The position numbers were made by a program, and so were the translations under genes. The notes under the pieces are model-generated. The model saw only the letters and a list, made by a program, of their open reading frames with translations. It searched no databases and had not been told where the DNA came from. A stretch of DNA of 51,209 nt from Escherichia phage BubbaBully: the sequence record OR896831.1. One strand, 5' to 3'. Of the stretch, positions 1,644 to 51,207 are shown in pieces; position 1 is the first letter of the stretch; each line of letters starts with the position of its first letter.

Positions 1644-2918
1644 ATGACCGAGAAAACAAAACTCGTTAAGGCTGACGGCTACAACGAGATCTTTAAGGGA
1701 GATCAGCGAGTGGAGACGCCGTTTTACATGCAGGGCGGCGTTGCAAAGCAGAGTCTTGCAACATTCTACGAGCGTGACGGCATGGCAAAGCGAATCATCG
1801 ACGTGATCCCGGAGGACATGGTTACGCCAGGTTTTAACGTTGATGGCGTGAAAGACGAGGCGGCATTCCGATCCCTTTGGGATGAAAAGAAGCTAAACGC
1901 TAAAATCATTGATGCTCTTTGCTGGTCGCGCCTGTTTGGAGGCTCAGCGATTGTTGCCGTTATCAACGATGGGCGCATGTTGAAATCACCAGCAAAAGAA
2001 GGAGCGCCGCTTGAGGATATTCGCGTTTATGACCGATTCCAGATCCGAGTTGAGAAGCGAGAAACCAACGCGCGAAGCGTGCGCTACGGCGAGCCTGTTT
2101 TGTACACCATTATGCCAGGCGGCGAGATTCCAGAGTATCAGGTGCATTACACGCGAATCTGCATTATCGACGGCGAGCGCTTGCCTAACGAGCAGCGCCG
2201 AAAAAATGATGGCTGGGGCGCGTCAATTCTCAACAAAAAGCTGATCGAGGCAATCCATGATTATAACTATTGCGAGGAGCTAGCAACTCAGCTTTTACGA
2301 CGCAAGCAGCAAGCAGTTTGGAAGGCAAAAGGACTTGCGGATTTGTGCGACGATGAAGAAGGTGTTTCCGCTGCGCGGCTGCGATTGGCTCAAGTTGACG
2401 ACGAAGGCGGCGTGGGTCGGGCAATTGGTATTGACGCAACGGACGAGGAATACGAGGTGCTTAACTCTGACATTTCAGGCGTTGACACATTCCTTGAGAA
2501 GAAAATGGATCGCATCGTTTCGCTTACTGGCATCCATGAAATCATCTTGAAGAACAAAAACACCGGAGGCGTTAGCGCAAGCCAAAACACGGCGCTTGAC
2601 ACTTATCACAAACTGATCGAGCGCAAGCGTAAAGAGGACTACAAGCCGATCCTGGAATTCCTCTTGCCATTCATGGTGGCAGAGCAGGAGTGGTCTATTT
2701 CGTTTGATCCGCTTTCGGTTCCGAGCGACAAAGACCAGGCTGAAATCTTGAATAAAAATATTGACTCGATCAGCAAGGCGATTGAAGGTCAGTTTATGGA
2801 TGTTGAGGAAGGACGCGACACATTGCGCTCTATCGCCCCGTCTCTTAAACTGAAAGACGGCAACAAAATCAAGCTACCGGAACCGGAGCAGGAGCCGGAG
2901 CCAGGAACGGAGGTTTAA
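1644..2918 (+). CDS. portal protein
   Basis: Large ORF directly after terL; start moved to ATG at 1644 (GGGAGA RBS) from alt-start track ORF 1590; position and size typical of portal. Confidence 0.65.
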   Translation: MTEKTKLVKADGYNEIFKGDQRVETPFYMQGGVAKQSLATFYERDGMAKRIIDVIPEDMVTPGFNVDGVKDEAAFRSLWDEKKLNAKIIDALCWSRLFGGSAIVAVINDGRMLKSPAKEGAPLEDIRVYDRFQIRVEKRETNARSVRYGEPVLYTIMPGGEIPEYQVHYTRICIIDGERLPNEQRRKNDGWGASILNKKLIEAIHDYNYCEELATQLLRRKQQAVWKAKGLADLCDDEEGVSAARLRLAQVDDEGGVGRAIGIDATDEEYEVLNSDISGVDTFLEKKMDRIVSLTGIHEIILKNKNTGGVSASQNTALDTYHKLIERKRKEDYKPILEFLLPFMVAEQEWSISFDPLSVPSDKDQAEILNKNIDSISKAIEGQFMDVEEGRDTLRSIAPSLKLKDGNKIKLPEPEQEPEPGTEV

Positions 2919-2921
2919 TCC

Positions 2922-3671
2922 ATGAAGGTAAAAGGAATCGTTAAGCAGTGGAGATTTCCAGAAGCCAGCGAGCGGCAATTAAGCCGCTCCATTAAAGAGG
3001 CTGTAAGGGATCTGGTTGTGTTTATGCGCAGCAAAACAAGGGCGATGAAGTTTGACGCTACAGATCAGGAGATAAGCAGCGCGGAGGACGAGATCAAAGA
3101 TTTCGCAAAAGAGCTTGCGCTCTCCCTGATTGGTCTACTTCCGGCGCTTGCGTCTGCCGTGTACAAGTTCAACTCCAAGCAGTGGGTAAACGTGGCGAAA
3201 TCAACAGGTGGCGCGAACAATCCTGTTATCATCCTGCTAATCGCAGTCGGAGCCAATCAGAGCGAGGAATGGTATCAAACGCTTTACGGCGAGTGGAGCA
3301 ACATGAGCGCGGCCTCGTTTGATAAGCTTTTCACTAACATAATTAACGATTGGTCTGCTAACATCAGGCAAGCAAATTTCACCGGAAAGAAAGCCGAGCA
3401 AGTGAACGAGATCGCGGAGCGTCGATTCGCTGTTTACTCTTCATGGGCTGGAAACCGCGCAACGGGAATCATTGGATCGTGGAATAGTCGCCTTATGCGC
3501 CAGAGGTTGCTAGATGCTGGGGTGAATTCTTATTATTGGCATGGTATGCTAGACGAGCGCGAGCGACTCAAACACTTACAATGGGAGGGAAAGGAGATCG
3601 GGATTGACGAGATTCACCCCTTCCCTGGCGAGGAGTACGGTTGCAGATGTTGGGCTATTCCAAAATGGTAG
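2922..3671 (+). CDS. head morphogenesis protein (Mu F / SPP1 gp7-like)
   Basis: 249-aa ORF immediately after portal; position and size as in Mu-F-like minor head proteins. Confidence 0.55.
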   Translation: MKVKGIVKQWRFPEASERQLSRSIKEAVRDLVVFMRSKTRAMKFDATDQEISSAEDEIKDFAKELALSLIGLLPALASAVYKFNSKQWVNVAKSTGGANNPVIILLIAVGANQSEEWYQTLYGEWSNMSAASFDKLFTNIINDWSANIRQANFTGKKAEQVNEIAERRFAVYSSWAGNRATGIIGSWNSRLMRQRLLDAGVNSYYWHGMLDERERLKHLQWEGKEIGIDEIHPFPGEEYGCRCWAIPKW

Positions 3672-3682
3672 AGGAGAATTGA

Positions 3683-4798
3683 ATGAAAAAGGTACAGCGT
3701 TTTGATAGCGTTCAGGTCAAAGCAAAGATTGACGAGCACGGTTTTCTTGTAGACCGTCCGATTGTTGCCCGTATCGGGTTGCAGGTTTACAAGACTCCGT
3801 TTGGAGAGCGTCGAGAGTTTCGCCCCGCCTCAGAGGTTTTCAAAGCTGACTCACTGGCTACGTTTTCCGGTAAGCCGATCACTATCGGTCATGTAACCGT
3901 TACGCCGGAGAATGCAAAAGAGGTTGTTGTAGGCGCGTGCGCTGGCGCTGGCGTGCCAAACGGGATCGGTGTTGAGGTTCCTTTGAGCATTTACGACAAG
4001 CGAGCCATTCAGAGCGCGAAATCAAAACAGACCGCCGAGTTGTCAGTTGGTTACACCTCAGTTGACATTGATAAGCCAGGCTGGGGTAATAATGGCACTG
4101 GAGAATACTTTTTCGATGAAGATATGCCGGAGGGCTGGAAAGCCGACTCGGATGATTGGGTGCGATTCGATGCGGTTCAAACGAATATCAGCGTGAATCA
4201 TATCGCGATGGTGTTCAAAGGTCGCGCTGGCATCGCAAAATTAAATCTTGATAGCGAGCAGGAATTCCCGTATCATGACGAGGAATTTTCAAACAAAGAG
4301 GATGAAGTTATGACCGTAAAAATCAAATTAGACGGCGCGGTAGAATTTGATGTGCCAAAAGAGGTAGCCGCTCACATCAACGCGATCACCGCAAAAGCAG
4401 ATGAAGCAAACGCAAAAGCTGACAGCCTGGAAGCAGAGCGTGATGCGCTGCAAGCTAAGGTAGACGGTATTCCGGCGCAAATCGAGGCGGCAGTAGCACA
4501 AGCCAAGGCCGACGCAGAAGCCCACGCGGAACTGGTTGCCGTAGCTGGTGAGGCTGGCGTTAAGTGCGACGGCTTGGACGCAAAAGCGATCAAAGTCGCC
4601 TACGTCAAAGAGGTTACTGGTGCTGATATCGCAGAGAAAACCGACGCTTACATTGACGCCGCGTTTGATCTGGCGAAAAACTCTGATAAAATGGCAGCAC
4701 AGCGCAAAGCGATTAAAGGCGATGCGGAAAAGAAAGAGAAGCAAGACGGCGAAGATAAACCGCTGAATCCTGCGTCTCGTTTGGCTAAAGTACAGTAA
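3683..4798 (+). CDS. putative capsid scaffolding / maturation protein
   Basis: 371-aa ORF between head morphogenesis and capsid genes; C-terminal Ala/Lys/Glu-rich predicted coiled coil. Confidence 0.4.
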   Translation: MKKVQRFDSVQVKAKIDEHGFLVDRPIVARIGLQVYKTPFGERREFRPASEVFKADSLATFSGKPITIGHVTVTPENAKEVVVGACAGAGVPNGIGVEVPLSIYDKRAIQSAKSKQTAELSVGYTSVDIDKPGWGNNGTGEYFFDEDMPEGWKADSDDWVRFDAVQTNISVNHIAMVFKGRAGIAKLNLDSEQEFPYHDEEFSNKEDEVMTVKIKLDGAVEFDVPKEVAAHINAITAKADEANAKADSLEAERDALQAKVDGIPAQIEAAVAQAKADAEAHAELVAVAGEAGVKCDGLDAKAIKVAYVKEVTGADIAEKTDAYIDAAFDLAKNSDKMAAQRKAIKGDAEKKEKQDGEDKPLNPASRLAKVQ

Positions 4799-4810: not shown

Positions 4811-5290
4811 ATGGCAATTCCAGCAACTTATCAAGCTACAATGGCTCGCGCACTGCCTGGCCAGGTTTCCGACACCTCAGCATATAACATTGACGGCGCG
4901 TGTGTTCTCGACGGCAGCGCTAACGTCCTTGTGGGCGTTGCGGTTCAGAATGGTGGTGTTGATTCTATGGGTAACAAACTGATCAAGCCTATGGCTGTAA
5001 GCGGCAAAGCTTACGGCGTTGCAATCCGCTCCCACTTCCAGACCGAAGCGGCAGACGGGCGAATGGTTTACGTTCCAGGCGGCGGCATCAACGTAATGAA
5101 TGAGGGTCGCGTTTGGATGCTGGCGGTAGATGGTCAGACTCAGAAGCCTTATGGTACTGCGATCAAGATCGAAGATTCCACTGGCAAGGTGGACACCGAA
5201 TCTGGCACTGTAGAGCCTAACTGGATCGCTACTGGTGACTTCACAGAGTTCCAGGGTCTTAAGTTGATTGAGGTTCAGGTTAAGCAGTAA
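4811..5290 (+). CDS. head-associated protein, paralog A (decoration-like)
   Basis: 159 aa; shares GRVW...WxxTGD pattern with the next ORF; upstream of major capsid gene. Confidence 0.45.
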   Translation: MAIPATYQATMARALPGQVSDTSAYNIDGACVLDGSANVLVGVAVQNGGVDSMGNKLIKPMAVSGKAYGVAIRSHFQTEAADGRMVYVPGGGINVMNEGRVWMLAVDGQTQKPYGTAIKIEDSTGKVDTESGTVEPNWIATGDFTEFQGLKLIEVQVKQ

Positions 5291-5296
5291 TAAAAT

Positions 5297-5321
5297 GGCG
5301 CTCGGTTGAGCGCCTTTTTTT
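5297..5321 (+). terminator. intrinsic terminator-like hairpin
   Basis: GGCGCTC-ggtt-GAGCGCC followed by T7; between the two paralogous head genes. Confidence 0.55.
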
Positions 5322-5333
5322 ATGGAGGTAAGA

Positions 5334-5795
5334 ATGATTGACTACGGCGTTATATCTGGATGCGCTAATCCTGGCTTTCTCGTTGATTCAACAATCAGCA
5401 CGATAAACGGCGGTGGGGTTGTCGTTGGTGATCGAGTGTTTGCTGGGTTTGCAGTCTCAAACTACGGAATGATTGATCTGTATCAAACATACGGAGAGTT
5501 TGATCAGGCGAAGGGGGCTTGCGGTATAGTGATCGCAAGCTTGCACGGCTGCGCTGGCTATGGAATACCAGAGGGTGAAGAGGTTAGCGTTATAACCAAA
5601 GGCAGGGTTTGGGCTGTCATTTTACCGGATGAAGATAAGCCGAGAGAGGGGGATAGCGTTATGATTTCGGATGGCGGAATAATCACCTCGCTACCTGAGC
5701 GGTTGGCGCAGTCTCCAAGGGGCTGGGTTTTCACTGGAGACTACGAGAGATATTCACACGATTTATCACTTGCTGGGGTGTGGATTATCGGATAA
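5334..5795 (+). CDS. head-associated protein, paralog B
   Basis: Start at second ATG after GGAGGT RBS; paralogous to 4811-5290. Confidence 0.45.
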   Translation: MIDYGVISGCANPGFLVDSTISTINGGGVVVGDRVFAGFAVSNYGMIDLYQTYGEFDQAKGACGIVIASLHGCAGYGIPEGEEVSVITKGRVWAVILPDEDKPREGDSVMISDGGIITSLPERLAQSPRGWVFTGDYERYSHDLSLAGVWIIG

Positions 5796-5807
5796 CACAA
5801 AAATCTA

Positions 5808-5835
5808 TTGCACGTTTAACAAAAAGTGCTATCAT
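5808..5835 (+). promoter_or_regulatory. sigma70-like promoter for major capsid gene (TTGCAC-16-TGcTATCAT)
   Basis: -35 TTGCAC 5808-5813, 16-bp spacer, extended -10 TG-n-TATCAT 5827-5835; the reversed box lies within the spacer and -10. Confidence 0.45.
5815..5832 (-). promoter_or_regulatory. conserved box, reversed orientation, overlapping capsid promoter
   Basis: TTTAACAAAAAGTGCTAT is the reverse complement of the box; followed by 8-bp hairpin 5839-5859 and strong RBS. Confidence 0.5.
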
Positions 5836-5876
5836 TGAGGCTGTTAATCGCTAACAGCCTTTAAGGAGAAAGAAAC

Positions 5877-6839
5877 ATGACTAAAAAGTATGACGAATTT
5901 GACGCCAGCGTTGTAACCGCTCACCTGCAAATGCAGGGCGTTAAAAATGACGCTTCCGATATGGGTATCTGGACTGCGCAGGAGCTTCACAAGATCCGCT
6001 CCTCTGCATACGAAAAAGAATACCCTGTAGGCTCCGCGCTGCGAGTGTTCCCTGTCACCAACGAACTGAGCGACACTGACAAGACTTTCGAATACCAGAC
6101 TTTCGATAAAGTTGGCTACGCTAAAATCATCGCTGATTATACCGACGACCTGCCAACCGTTGACGCGCTGATGTCAACCGAGTTTGGTAAAGTGTTCCGC
6201 TTGGGTAACGCTTTCCTGATCTCCATTGACGAAATCAAAGCAGGTCAACGCACTGGTAAGAGCCTGAGCGCTCGCAAGGCAAACGCCGCGCAGAATGCTC
6301 ACGACCAGCTTGTAAACTTCCTGGTGTTCAAGGGTTCCAAGCCGCACAAAATTCTGAGCGTGTTTGAACACCCTAACCTGACCAAGATCGTAGCCGCTAA
6401 AAAATGGTACGACTCAAGCTCAAAAGCCAAAGAGCCAGAGCAAGCTTTCGACGATCTGACTGCGGCAATCGAAGCGCTGGAGACTCAGACCAACGGGCAG
6501 CACCGCGCTACCCACATTCTGATCCCGCCAAGCGTCCGTAAAGTTCTGATGGTTCGCATGGAAAATACCACTGAGAGCTACCTGGAATACTTCCAGAAGC
6601 AAAACGGCGGTATCACCATTGAAGCAATCGCAGAGCTTGAAGATATCGACGGTTCCGGCGGCAAGGGCGTACTGGTGTACGAAAAAGATCCAATGAATAT
6701 GTCCATTGAGATCCCCGAAGCATTCAATATGCTGCCAGCGCAGCCTAAAGACCTGCATTTCAAAGTGCCTTGCACCTCTAAATGCACTGGTCTGACAATC
6801 TATCGCCCATTAACTCTTGTGTTAATCACTGGCGTGTAA
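5877..6839 (+). CDS. major capsid protein
   Basis: 320 aa; own promoter, strong RBS AAGGAGAAAG, terminator downstream; position after scaffold and decoration genes. Confidence 0.65.
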   Translation: MTKKYDEFDASVVTAHLQMQGVKNDASDMGIWTAQELHKIRSSAYEKEYPVGSALRVFPVTNELSDTDKTFEYQTFDKVGYAKIIADYTDDLPTVDALMSTEFGKVFRLGNAFLISIDEIKAGQRTGKSLSARKANAAQNAHDQLVNFLVFKGSKPHKILSVFEHPNLTKIVAAKKWYDSSSKAKEPEQAFDDLTAAIEALETQTNGQHRATHILIPPSVRKVLMVRMENTTESYLEYFQKQNGGITIEAIAELEDIDGSGGKGVLVYEKDPMNMSIEIPEAFNMLPAQPKDLHFKVPCTSKCTGLTIYRPLTLVLITGV

Positions 6840-6845
6840 TATTAT

Positions 6846-6874
6846 GGGAGCCTCTTACGAGGTTCCCATTTTTT
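6846..6874 (+). terminator. intrinsic terminator after capsid gene
   Basis: GGGAGCCTC-ttac-GAGGTTCCC followed by T6. Confidence 0.6.
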
Positions 6875-6890
6875 GTTTAGGAGATAAACA

Positions 6891-7163
6891 ATGGCTAAAG
6901 AAAAAACTGTAACGCTGGTAAACTCTGGTGTTTGCTCAATCTTCATCAAAGGTGATCGCTATGTTCCAGGTGATGAAATTGAAGTTTTCGAGTCCGATCT
7001 GGAGACTTCCGGCATTGAAATGCTAATCGCTCGCGGCGACTTAAAAGTTAAGAACGACGACGAAAAAACCGAAGCTGTTAAAGCGCGTGTAAACAAGCGC
7101 AAGAAAGCAAGCCCTACCGAGGGCAAGACGAAAAATGAGCTTGAGGACGGCGGCGAATATTAA
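6891..7163 (+). CDS. hypothetical small structural-region protein
   Basis: 90 aa, strong RBS, flanked by terminator hairpins on both sides. Confidence 0.5.
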   Translation: MAKEKTVTLVNSGVCSIFIKGDRYVPGDEIEVFESDLETSGIEMLIARGDLKVKNDDEKTEAVKARVNKRKKASPTEGKTKNELEDGGEY

Positions 7164-7169
7164 TCATGA

Positions 7170-7195
7170 GGGAGCCTAGTGCTCCCTTTTCTTTT
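7170..7195 (+). terminator. intrinsic terminator-like hairpin
   Basis: GGGAGC-ctagt-GCTCCC followed by a T-rich run. Confidence 0.55.
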
Positions 7196-27392: not shown

Positions 27393-27458
27393 ATTTAAAT
27401 TCTCCTAAATATCACGTTTTGTTAATGACAAGCTGGATTATAGCATTGCGCAAGGCAT

Positions 27459-50613: not shown

Positions 50614-50650
50614 CCCCGCGTTTGCGGGGTTTTTTTGTGCCTGTTATAAT
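50614..50650 (+). promoter_or_regulatory. terminator-promoter fusion unit (hairpin + T7 + TTGCGG-17-TG-n-TATAAT)
   Basis: CCCCGC-gttt-GCGGGG stem; -35 TTGCGG 50622-50627; extended -10 50642-50650; upstream of putative TerS. Confidence 0.5.
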
Positions 50651-50676
50651 TGGCCTCCAACAAGAGGAGGTTAACC

Positions 50677-51207
50677 ATGAGCAGAGAAGAAAAGCAAAAG
50701 CCATTCACGGCTTACAACTTTAAGAAACTATATAACAAGCAGTATGGCGATATCGCCACGCTAGGAAAGCAACACCGATACACGCCGGAGCAGGTTTTTA
50801 ACCTTGCCGTCAAATACTTTGAGTGGGCGGAGTCCAACGCACTAAAGGCGGCTGAATCTTCATCGTTCCAGGGGCGCACGTACCAGGACGAGGTAAACAA
50901 GCCGCGCGTTTTCACTTTCAACGGTCTGCGCCTGTTTTGCGGCTGGTCGCGATGCGCGATGGAGAAATGGAAGAAAGAGCCAGGTTTCTCCGAGGTTATG
51001 GAGTTTATCGAGTCTGTGATCTATGAGCAGAAATTCCAGCTTGCGGCTAACGGCGTGATTAACGCTGCATTCATCGCCAAAGATTTAGGAGTTGACCAGC
51101 CGACGCAAATCAACGTTAGCGCAAACTCCGAGTCAAGCGCTGCAATCGCAGAGGTTGGAGCCGACGAGGTGCGCGAGGCGGTTCGTGATATTCTTGCGGA
51201 GATCTGA
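50677..51207 (+). CDS. putative terminase small subunit
   Basis: 176 aa from ATG 50677 (GAGGAGG RBS); ends 2 nt before window end and, circularised, sits directly upstream of terL; call by position only. Confidence 0.5.
   Translation: MSREEKQKPFTAYNFKKLYNKQYGDIATLGKQHRYTPEQVFNLAVKYFEWAESNALKAAESSSFQGRTYQDEVNKPRVFTFNGLRLFCGWSRCAMEKWKKEPGFSEVMEFIESVIYEQKFQLAANGVINAAFIAKDLGVDQPTQINVSANSESSAAIAEVGADEVREAVRDILAEI

Follow-up and report, generated by a model that had tools for sequence, protein, structure and literature searches.

The locus analysed here has its closest described relatives in gp49 and gp48, the cement proteins of phage T1 (PDB 9KZJ; Viruses 2025, PMC11945409). As resolved by cryo-EM, the T=7 head of T1 carries 80 gp49 homotrimers together with 60 heterotrimers, each combining two gp49 subunits with a single gp48; per head, there are 360 copies of gp49, 60 of gp48 and 415 of the major capsid protein (MCP) (PMC11945409). 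Both proteins adopt a beta-tulip fold. Whereas gp49 extends its N-terminus into the shell, gp48 is found on the surface only, its residues 2-153 forming the beta-tulip domain and residues 154-255 a flexible protrusion (PMC11945409). A near-identical pair is present in phage FCWL1 (PDB 9KMG/9KMH), under the names "cement protein II" and "decoration protein gp29", and the portal-vertex entry 9kmh contains five chains of the gp48-type protein; a literature search returned no usable structure paper for this phage. The HtjA/HdeC pair of phage Tls ("capsid decoration protein" and "IgG-domain-containing decoration protein") shows the same tandem arrangement.

Other cement proteins are grouped in the Pfam families PF22758 (Phage_cement; Pseudomonas phage E217 gp24 and cyanophage Pam3 gp6) and PF23982 (Vibrio phage XM1 gp53), and we know of no second paralogue reported for the cement proteins of E217, Pam3 or XM1. 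In phage lambda, gpD is a single protein that is added after expansion, for which, to our knowledge, neither a paralogue pair nor a heterotrimer has been described. According to the T1 study, lambda gpD and TW1 gp56 resemble the T1 proteins in forming a trimeric beta-tulip clamp at three-fold positions (PMC11945409).

The DNA analysed here, a stretch of 51,209 nucleotides from Escherichia phage BubbaBully (hereafter the window), appears to be a complete T1-like Drexlerviridae genome of Henuseptimavirus-like type. In megablast comparisons of the head region and the first 25 kb, its nearest relative is Enterobacter phage N5822 (88-91% identity), followed by Klebsiella phage Samwise and the Escherichia phages JohannLBurckhardt (Bas11), Henu7 and IsaakIselin (85-88%), these last four belonging to the genus Henuseptimavirus. 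Scans of the whole window revealed no tRNA genes and no Rfam families. Starting from the large terminase gene, the head genes are ordered as portal, Mu-F-like head morphogenesis protein, protease/scaffold, ORF A, ORF B and MCP, an arrangement shared with the annotated relatives (Table 1). An earlier note on this DNA had placed the two tandem ORFs upstream of a major capsid gene, and the downstream gene is indeed identified as that of the MCP by both Pfam and PHROG. The protease/scaffold protein shares 97-98% amino acid identity with its Henuseptimavirus relatives, and the MCP 98% with the same relatives and 75% with T1 gp47; a terminator-like site is found 3' of the MCP gene, at 6844-6869.

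Table 1. Features of the cement gene region in the BubbaBully window
Feature	Position	Strand	Basis or details
Prohead protease/scaffold fusion gene (upstream neighbour)	3683-4798	+	Pfam DUF2213, E 1.9e-26; PHROG 530 head maturation protease, E 9e-110
ORF A, predicted major cement protein, T1 gp49 orthologue, 159 aa	4811-5290	+	Pfam, PDB match, synteny
Intrinsic-terminator-like hairpin followed by T7	5297-5321	+	GGCGCTC-GGTT-GAGCGCC; 7 bp, 6 of them GC, loop GGTT
Shine-Dalgarno GGAGG of ORF B	5325-5329	+	Read from sequence
ORF B, predicted minor cement paralogue, 153 aa, no Ig-like domain	5334-5795	+	Pfam, PDB, AF2/Foldseek, tree
Promoter-like element TTGCAC-N16-(TGc)TATCAT	5808-5835	+	Read from sequence, upstream of the capsid gene
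Conserved hairpin just 3' of the -10-like hexamer	5837-5861	+	RNAfold, 10-bp stem
MCP gene, HK97 fold family	5877-6839	+	Pfam PF09950, E 1.9e-53; PHROG 264, E 3e-102

Both ORFs score above the Pfam gathering cut-off (27 bits) for the two cement families, ORF A with 93 bits for PF22758 and 52.5 bits for PF23982, and ORF B with 33.9 and 55 bits, respectively. This membership, together with T1 gp49 and gp48 as closest solved relatives, upholds the suggestion in the earlier note that these are decoration- or cement-like proteins. No sequence relationship to lambda gpD or TW1 gp56 was detectable for either ORF.

ORF A is the first gene after the protease/scaffold gene and corresponds to gp49. It aligns end to end with the cement chain (158 aa) of the T1 and FCWL1 structures (PDB 9kzj/9kmg; E 5.5e-38) and is 50% identical to T1 gp49 (ST49) over its full length, so that a beta-tulip fold can be predicted from its alignment with the solved chain. 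Its N-terminal segment MAIPATYQATMARALPG aligns with the N-terminus of T1 gp49, a conserved extended arm, and residues I3, Y7, M11, A14, L15, P16 and G17, which include the ALPG motif, are invariant among the 17 sequences of the family of proteins encoded at this first position (g1). ORF A has retained this gp49-type arm, and by homology to T1 it would insert into the shell.

The assignment of ORF B required a wider range of evidence. When it was searched against the PDB by sequence, matches were limited to the 255-aa chains of T1 and FCWL1 labelled "BIG2 domain-containing" or "decoration protein gp29", the gp48 chain 9kzj_H being matched over the first ~140 residues (E 2.3e-6), and the gp49 chain was not matched. 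The N-terminus of ORF B is of the shorter gp48 type (M-x-DYG...), and the insertion characteristic of the gp49 type (ADGRM) is absent; identity to the N-terminal domain of gp48 is about 26-29%. Used alone as a query against 5.8 billion proteins, ORF B retrieved only four metagenomic clusters with ~190 member sequences, and the alignment for structure prediction was therefore widened with the gp49-type and gp48-type matches. The resulting AF2 model (pLDDT 83.9, pTM 0.82) has T1 gp48 (9kzj_H) as its top PDB match in Foldseek (TM 0.77, E 9e-9), followed by the cement proteins of FCWL1, XM1, Pam3 and E217, with TM values of 0.64-0.80 across the range from T1 to E217. The matches to the myophage cement chains 7kmx_a, 8hdt_G and 8frs_f are made with only 13-14% sequence identity, and TW1 gp56 (5wk1_K) is a weak structural match. 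On the combined sequence and model evidence, ORF B is homologous to the beta-tulip domain at the N-terminus of T1 gp48, from which it has diverged.

The likeness to T1 extends to the whole arrangement, from the protease through the gp49-type gene, terminator, gp48-type gene and promoter-like element to the capsid gene, and to ORF B itself, with its gp48-type N-terminus and predicted beta-tulip fold. In contrast to gp48, which has 255 residues, ORF B has 153 and is missing Big_2, the C-terminal domain protruding from the head of T1. It ends exactly where the cement domain of gp48 ends, at the last strand, leaving no room for a Big_2 domain, and no Pfam match to Big_2 (PF02368) was obtained for it. 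A remnant of an Ig-like domain was also looked for after ORF B and rejected, the 81-nt gap to the MCP gene being occupied by the conserved promoter-like element and hairpin. As for the start codon, ATG 5334 lies 4 nt after the Shine-Dalgarno sequence and agrees with the annotated start in the relatives, in which GGAG-type boxes also precede the position-2 start; the in-frame ATG at 5322 was discarded, since it has no Shine-Dalgarno sequence and lies within the T-run of the terminator.

The earlier note had considered the two ORFs as paralogues from their similar length, shared motifs and Gly/Val-rich composition, and each of these observations proved correct. GRVW is found at residues 99-102 of ORF A and 90-93 of ORF B, WxxTGD at 138-143 (WIATGD) and 131-136 (WVFTGD), respectively, and the contents of Gly (12.6% in A, 15.7% in B) and Val (11.3% and 9.8%) are high in both. 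Formal pairwise comparison gave a similarity above chance by three methods. BLASTP aligned the C-terminal 60 residues with 27% identity (E 2e-4); the Smith-Waterman score was 82, compared with an average of 32 +/- 5.7 for shuffled sequences, and was reached by 0 of 2000 shuffles (z 8.8); and hhalign of the family profiles covered 143 columns with a probability of 96.7% (E 3.3e-10). Both ORFs match PHROG 1989. In an alignment of 38 sequences, ten columns are invariant, including G-R-x-W of the GRVW motif and the W of WxxTGD, and G14, D18, G38, G90, R91, W93 and W131 are invariant across the families encoded at the first and second positions (g1 and g2). These comparisons show that the homology between ORF A and ORF B spans the two proteins from end to end.

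In order to place the duplication, we compared 15 genomes in detail, comprising the window and those of T1, Tls, Vc1, slyngel, EC125, BEBK14, SECphi27, RCIP0096, BananaBelafonte, AS5, IsaakIselin, JohannLBurckhardt, Samwise and Henu7. One further Klebsiella phage was compared for gene order only, and N5822 for sequence identity only, because its annotation is fragmented. In a neighbour-joining tree of the 15 genomes, a single split separates the first proteins from the second proteins in 100/100 bootstraps, ORF A grouping with the first and ORF B with the second, and the duplication is therefore older than the sampled Drexlerviridae. A recent tandem duplication was rejected on this split and on the identity of 24% between ORF A and ORF B. 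The paralogy of the two ORFs proposed in the earlier note stands, by hhalign and shared families. Within the second group, ORF B forms a separate long branch with its counterparts in N5822, JohannLBurckhardt, Henu7 and Samwise.

The cement pair was present in 16/16 other Drexlerviridae examined, and the order protease, g1 (157-173 aa), g2 (138-280 aa) and MCP gene is common to the genomes compared. The complete succession of protease, g1, hairpin with T-run, g2, promoter-like element and MCP gene was found in 15/15 genomes, and the 16th relative has the same gene order. The second protein always contains the cement domain in the compared genomes, and the Big_2 domain varies. It was detected in the second proteins of T1-type phages, BananaBelafonte, AS5, BEBK14 and SECphi27, and Pfam did not detect it in those of EC125 (261 aa), Tls, slyngel, Vc1, RCIP0096 and the ORF B clade. 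Short second proteins (138-168 aa) in which Pfam recognises the cement domain alone are likewise encoded by Tls, slyngel, Vc1 and RCIP0096; they share only 34-40% identity with ORF B.

In IsaakIselin, the second cement gene carries an in-frame TAG (~2833-2835) at codon 166, where AS5 (gene 2338-3057) has GAA, and the record consequently annotates two ORFs, of 165 and 71 aa. The TAG is located exactly at the junction of the cement and Ig-like domains, a natural truncation that takes off the Ig-like part only. For N5822 (MW032452.1), the deposited record is circular and of 78 kb, compared with ~50 kb for the genomes of its group, and the annotation breaks its head genes, the two cement genes among them, into fragments, which suggests assembly or sequencing errors in the record.

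The two cement genes diverge much faster than the genes around them. In the comparison with JohannLBurckhardt, Samwise and Henu7, dN/dS is 0.17 for ORF B, 0.06-0.08 for ORF A, 0.04 for the MCP and 0.03 for the protease, and dN of ORF B is 0.20 against 0.01 for the capsid gene; its frame is intact in four relatives and in the four metagenomic clusters. ORF B is under purifying selection, at 73% amino acid identity where the flanking protease and MCP reach 98%. Synonymous divergence follows the same pattern, with a dS of 0.6-1.2 in the two cement genes, several times that of the flanking genes (0.24-0.39). In a sliding-window comparison, identity drops into a sharp valley close to the beginning of ORF A and recovers at the stop codon of ORF B. 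Within this valley (4811-5795) nucleotide identity is 60-86%, or 42-77% in the case of AS5, compared with 90-98% in the flanks (3683-4798 and 5877-6839). AS5 and IsaakIselin carry a different allele pair of both genes (69-72% and 37% identity) in a background that is 97-98% identical. Because of the valley and the higher synonymous divergence, we suggest that the two cement genes are exchanged between phages as one module or cassette. The distances of g1 and g2 co-vary beyond those of the flanking genes (partial r 0.59, Mantel p ~2e-4, 15 genomes), which fits such an exchange as well, although adjacency in one recombination block could by itself produce it.

The signals between these genes are conserved in position. 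The earlier note had described a terminator hairpin between the two ORFs, and a hairpin with a T-run is found there in 15/15 genomes, with differing stem sequences and with the g2 Shine-Dalgarno sequence directly after it. Its counterpart in T1 is annotated as a rho-independent terminator (NC_005833) and is the top terminator match in that genome. Between g2 and the MCP gene, 15/15 genomes have an element of the form TTG(C/A)A(C/G)-N16-TGcTAT(C/T/A)(A/T)T. The T1 version, TTGACG-16-TATTAT with the TG of an extended -10, matches at 10/12 positions and is the best promoter-like site of its region; that of BubbaBully has only 3/6 matches in the -35 and was for this reason not listed by the promoter scan. 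A hairpin follows the -10-like hexamer in 15/15 genomes, again with differing stem sequences, and in most relatives a T-run comes next, of 4-6 T in T1, Tls, Vc1, BEBK14 and SECphi27, compared with 3 T in BubbaBully. It starts only 2-4 nt after the hexamer (element and hairpin together at 5808-5861 in BubbaBully; the same place in the relatives), so close that a terminator for read-through and the capsid promoter appear to overlap. A role of this hairpin as a 5' stabiliser of the capsid mRNA was considered and abandoned for lack of support, since transcripts initiated ~7 nt past the hexamer would begin within the stem, and a putative terminator overlapping the promoter fits better. A literature search yielded nothing usable on transcription maps of Drexlerviridae.

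Taken together, it is very probable that ORF A and ORF B represent the paralogous pair of cement proteins of a T1-like siphophage, with trimers of two A and one B and an expression graded by transcription. This reading builds on the homology, fold, synteny, old duplication, purifying selection and conserved signals observed here, and, by analogy with T1, heterotrimers, similar copy numbers and terminator read-through would be expected in BubbaBully, the heterotrimers also in view of the co-variation of g1 and g2. ORF A would be the abundant subunit, its beta-tulip trimers occupying the three-fold and quasi-three-fold sites of the T=7 shell and clamping neighbouring capsomers, and its conserved N-terminal arm would extend into the shell. 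ORF B would replace one ORF A subunit in a subset of the trimers; for the 60 heterotrimers of T1, we infer a placement as five trimers around each vertex. As ORF B has no Ig-like (Big_2) domain, its role would be purely structural and site-specific. On the side of expression, the long upstream head transcript would end after ORF A at the conserved intrinsic terminator and ORF B would be reached only by read-through, which the second hairpin would end in turn. The MCP gene would have its own promoter, whose transcripts, starting inside the second hairpin, would escape it. ORF B would then be scarce and ORF A and MCP plentiful, in keeping with the 60 : 360 : 415 copies in T1. The differential expression proposed in the earlier note is likely, in agreement with the conserved terminator and the 360/60 copies in T1. 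Overall, the interpretation given there is supported in its essentials, with two refinements: the duplication predates the sampled Drexlerviridae, and the pair, although a pair of capsid accessory proteins, would not act as independent decorations, the T1 proteins co-assembling into heterotrimers.

Three observations count against parts of this reading. The Big_2 domain missing from ORF B is the part behind the proposed function of gp48 itself; the identity of ORF B is only ~26% to the N-terminal domain of gp48 and 24% to ORF A, so that its partner and stoichiometry could differ; and the capsid promoter-like element of BubbaBully has a weak -35 (3/6), with a core that belongs to a repeat of 12 copies, described below, which may be either a promoter part or an operator. 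More tentatively, and as a possibility that we would not favour outright, the cement domain of the second paralogue and not the Ig appendage may be what is selected, an Ig-less gp48-type subunit being required at the trimer sites adjacent to the five-fold vertices, with a ratio of ~1:6 to ORF A set by a conserved leaky terminator upstream and a terminator-overlapping promoter downstream, and with exchange of the two genes as a co-adapted, fast-evolving cassette within a nearly invariant head module.

We also considered that ORF B might not co-assemble with ORF A at all, either forming homotrimers of its own at particular sites of the capsid or acting transiently in assembly, like a scaffold or chaperone, and then being absent from mature virions. 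Its strong divergence from gp48 (26%), the missing Ig-like domain and the names "putative scaffolding protein" and "Scaffolding protein SbcC like" in some records would be in line with this. However, these names come without stated evidence, the actual scaffold function belongs to the protease/scaffold gene further upstream, and the only solved relatives of ORF B sit on mature capsids; its position, terminator and co-variation with g1 also match T1, where heterotrimers have been seen, and we regard such a protein as improbable.

Still less probable is that ORF B is a decaying gp48-like remnant, which lost its Ig-like domain and is drifting towards loss. Although its dN is far above that of the capsid gene and the IsaakIselin homologue is cut by a nonsense codon at the domain boundary, a dN/dS far below 1, a frame kept intact in all relatives and in the metagenomic sequences, a strong Shine-Dalgarno sequence and core residues that are invariant in both families argue for a functional gene, and Ig-less position-2 genes persist in Tls, slyngel, Vc1 and RCIP0096. 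That the two ORFs are unrelated, sharing motifs by chance in Gly/Val-rich sequence, could be argued from the pairwise BLASTP alignment, which covers only 60 residues at 27% identity, but this is already refuted by the z value, the hhalign result over 143 columns, the shared Pfam and PHROG families and the common fold, and we give it practically no weight.

The gp49/gp48 cement pair is, in our view, an ordinary feature of T1-like phages, already understood and structurally characterised, and what is particular to BubbaBully is the short, strongly diverged and Ig-less second subunit. The main value of these results lies in annotation, as proteins of the ORF B type, labelled "hypothetical", "putative scaffolding protein" or "Scaffolding protein SbcC like" in public records, are predicted by sequence and model to be minor capsid cement subunits. 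The pair is universal in the sampled Drexlerviridae, and the Ig-like domain of gp48 appears to be dispensable and is missing in a number of the second proteins. Within a head module that is conserved elsewhere, the two surface proteins diverge fastest, which is of use for the engineering of T1-like capsids for display, and the findings bear on the question of why a second cement paralogue is required in a T=7 shell.

The repeat that overlaps the capsid promoter-like element is a 22-nt element, TTTTAACAAAAAGTGCTATTTA, present in 12 copies in the window against 0.8 expected. Its core, AACAAAAAGTGCTAT, is found on the plus strand at 5818, 9533, 39583, 40976 and 41902, and on the minus strand at 27423, 28979, 31471, 33435, 43275, 46161 and 48622. 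JohannLBurckhardt has 11 copies of the element, and copies are present in T1 too. Some copies are located directly before late genes (those of the MCP, the tape-measure chaperone and the lateral tail fibre) and before the predicted transcriptional regulator of the phage (28511-28987, minus strand), in each case in the direction of the gene; the others lie in intergenic gaps of the early regions, opposite to the gene direction and near GC hairpins and -10-like hexamers. The element may be part of a promoter or the operator of a regulator; no mention of it was found in a literature search.

After the MCP gene there is a conserved ORF of 90 aa (6891-7163, plus strand) with a Lys-rich C-terminus, flanked by the terminator-like hairpins at 6844-6869 and 7168-7188. 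It is the counterpart of T1 ST46 and is labelled "hypothetical" in all the records seen. The window itself (1-51209) looks like a complete, permuted genome, in which the large terminase gene begins at base 1 and an ORF at 50650-51207 has the size of a small terminase.
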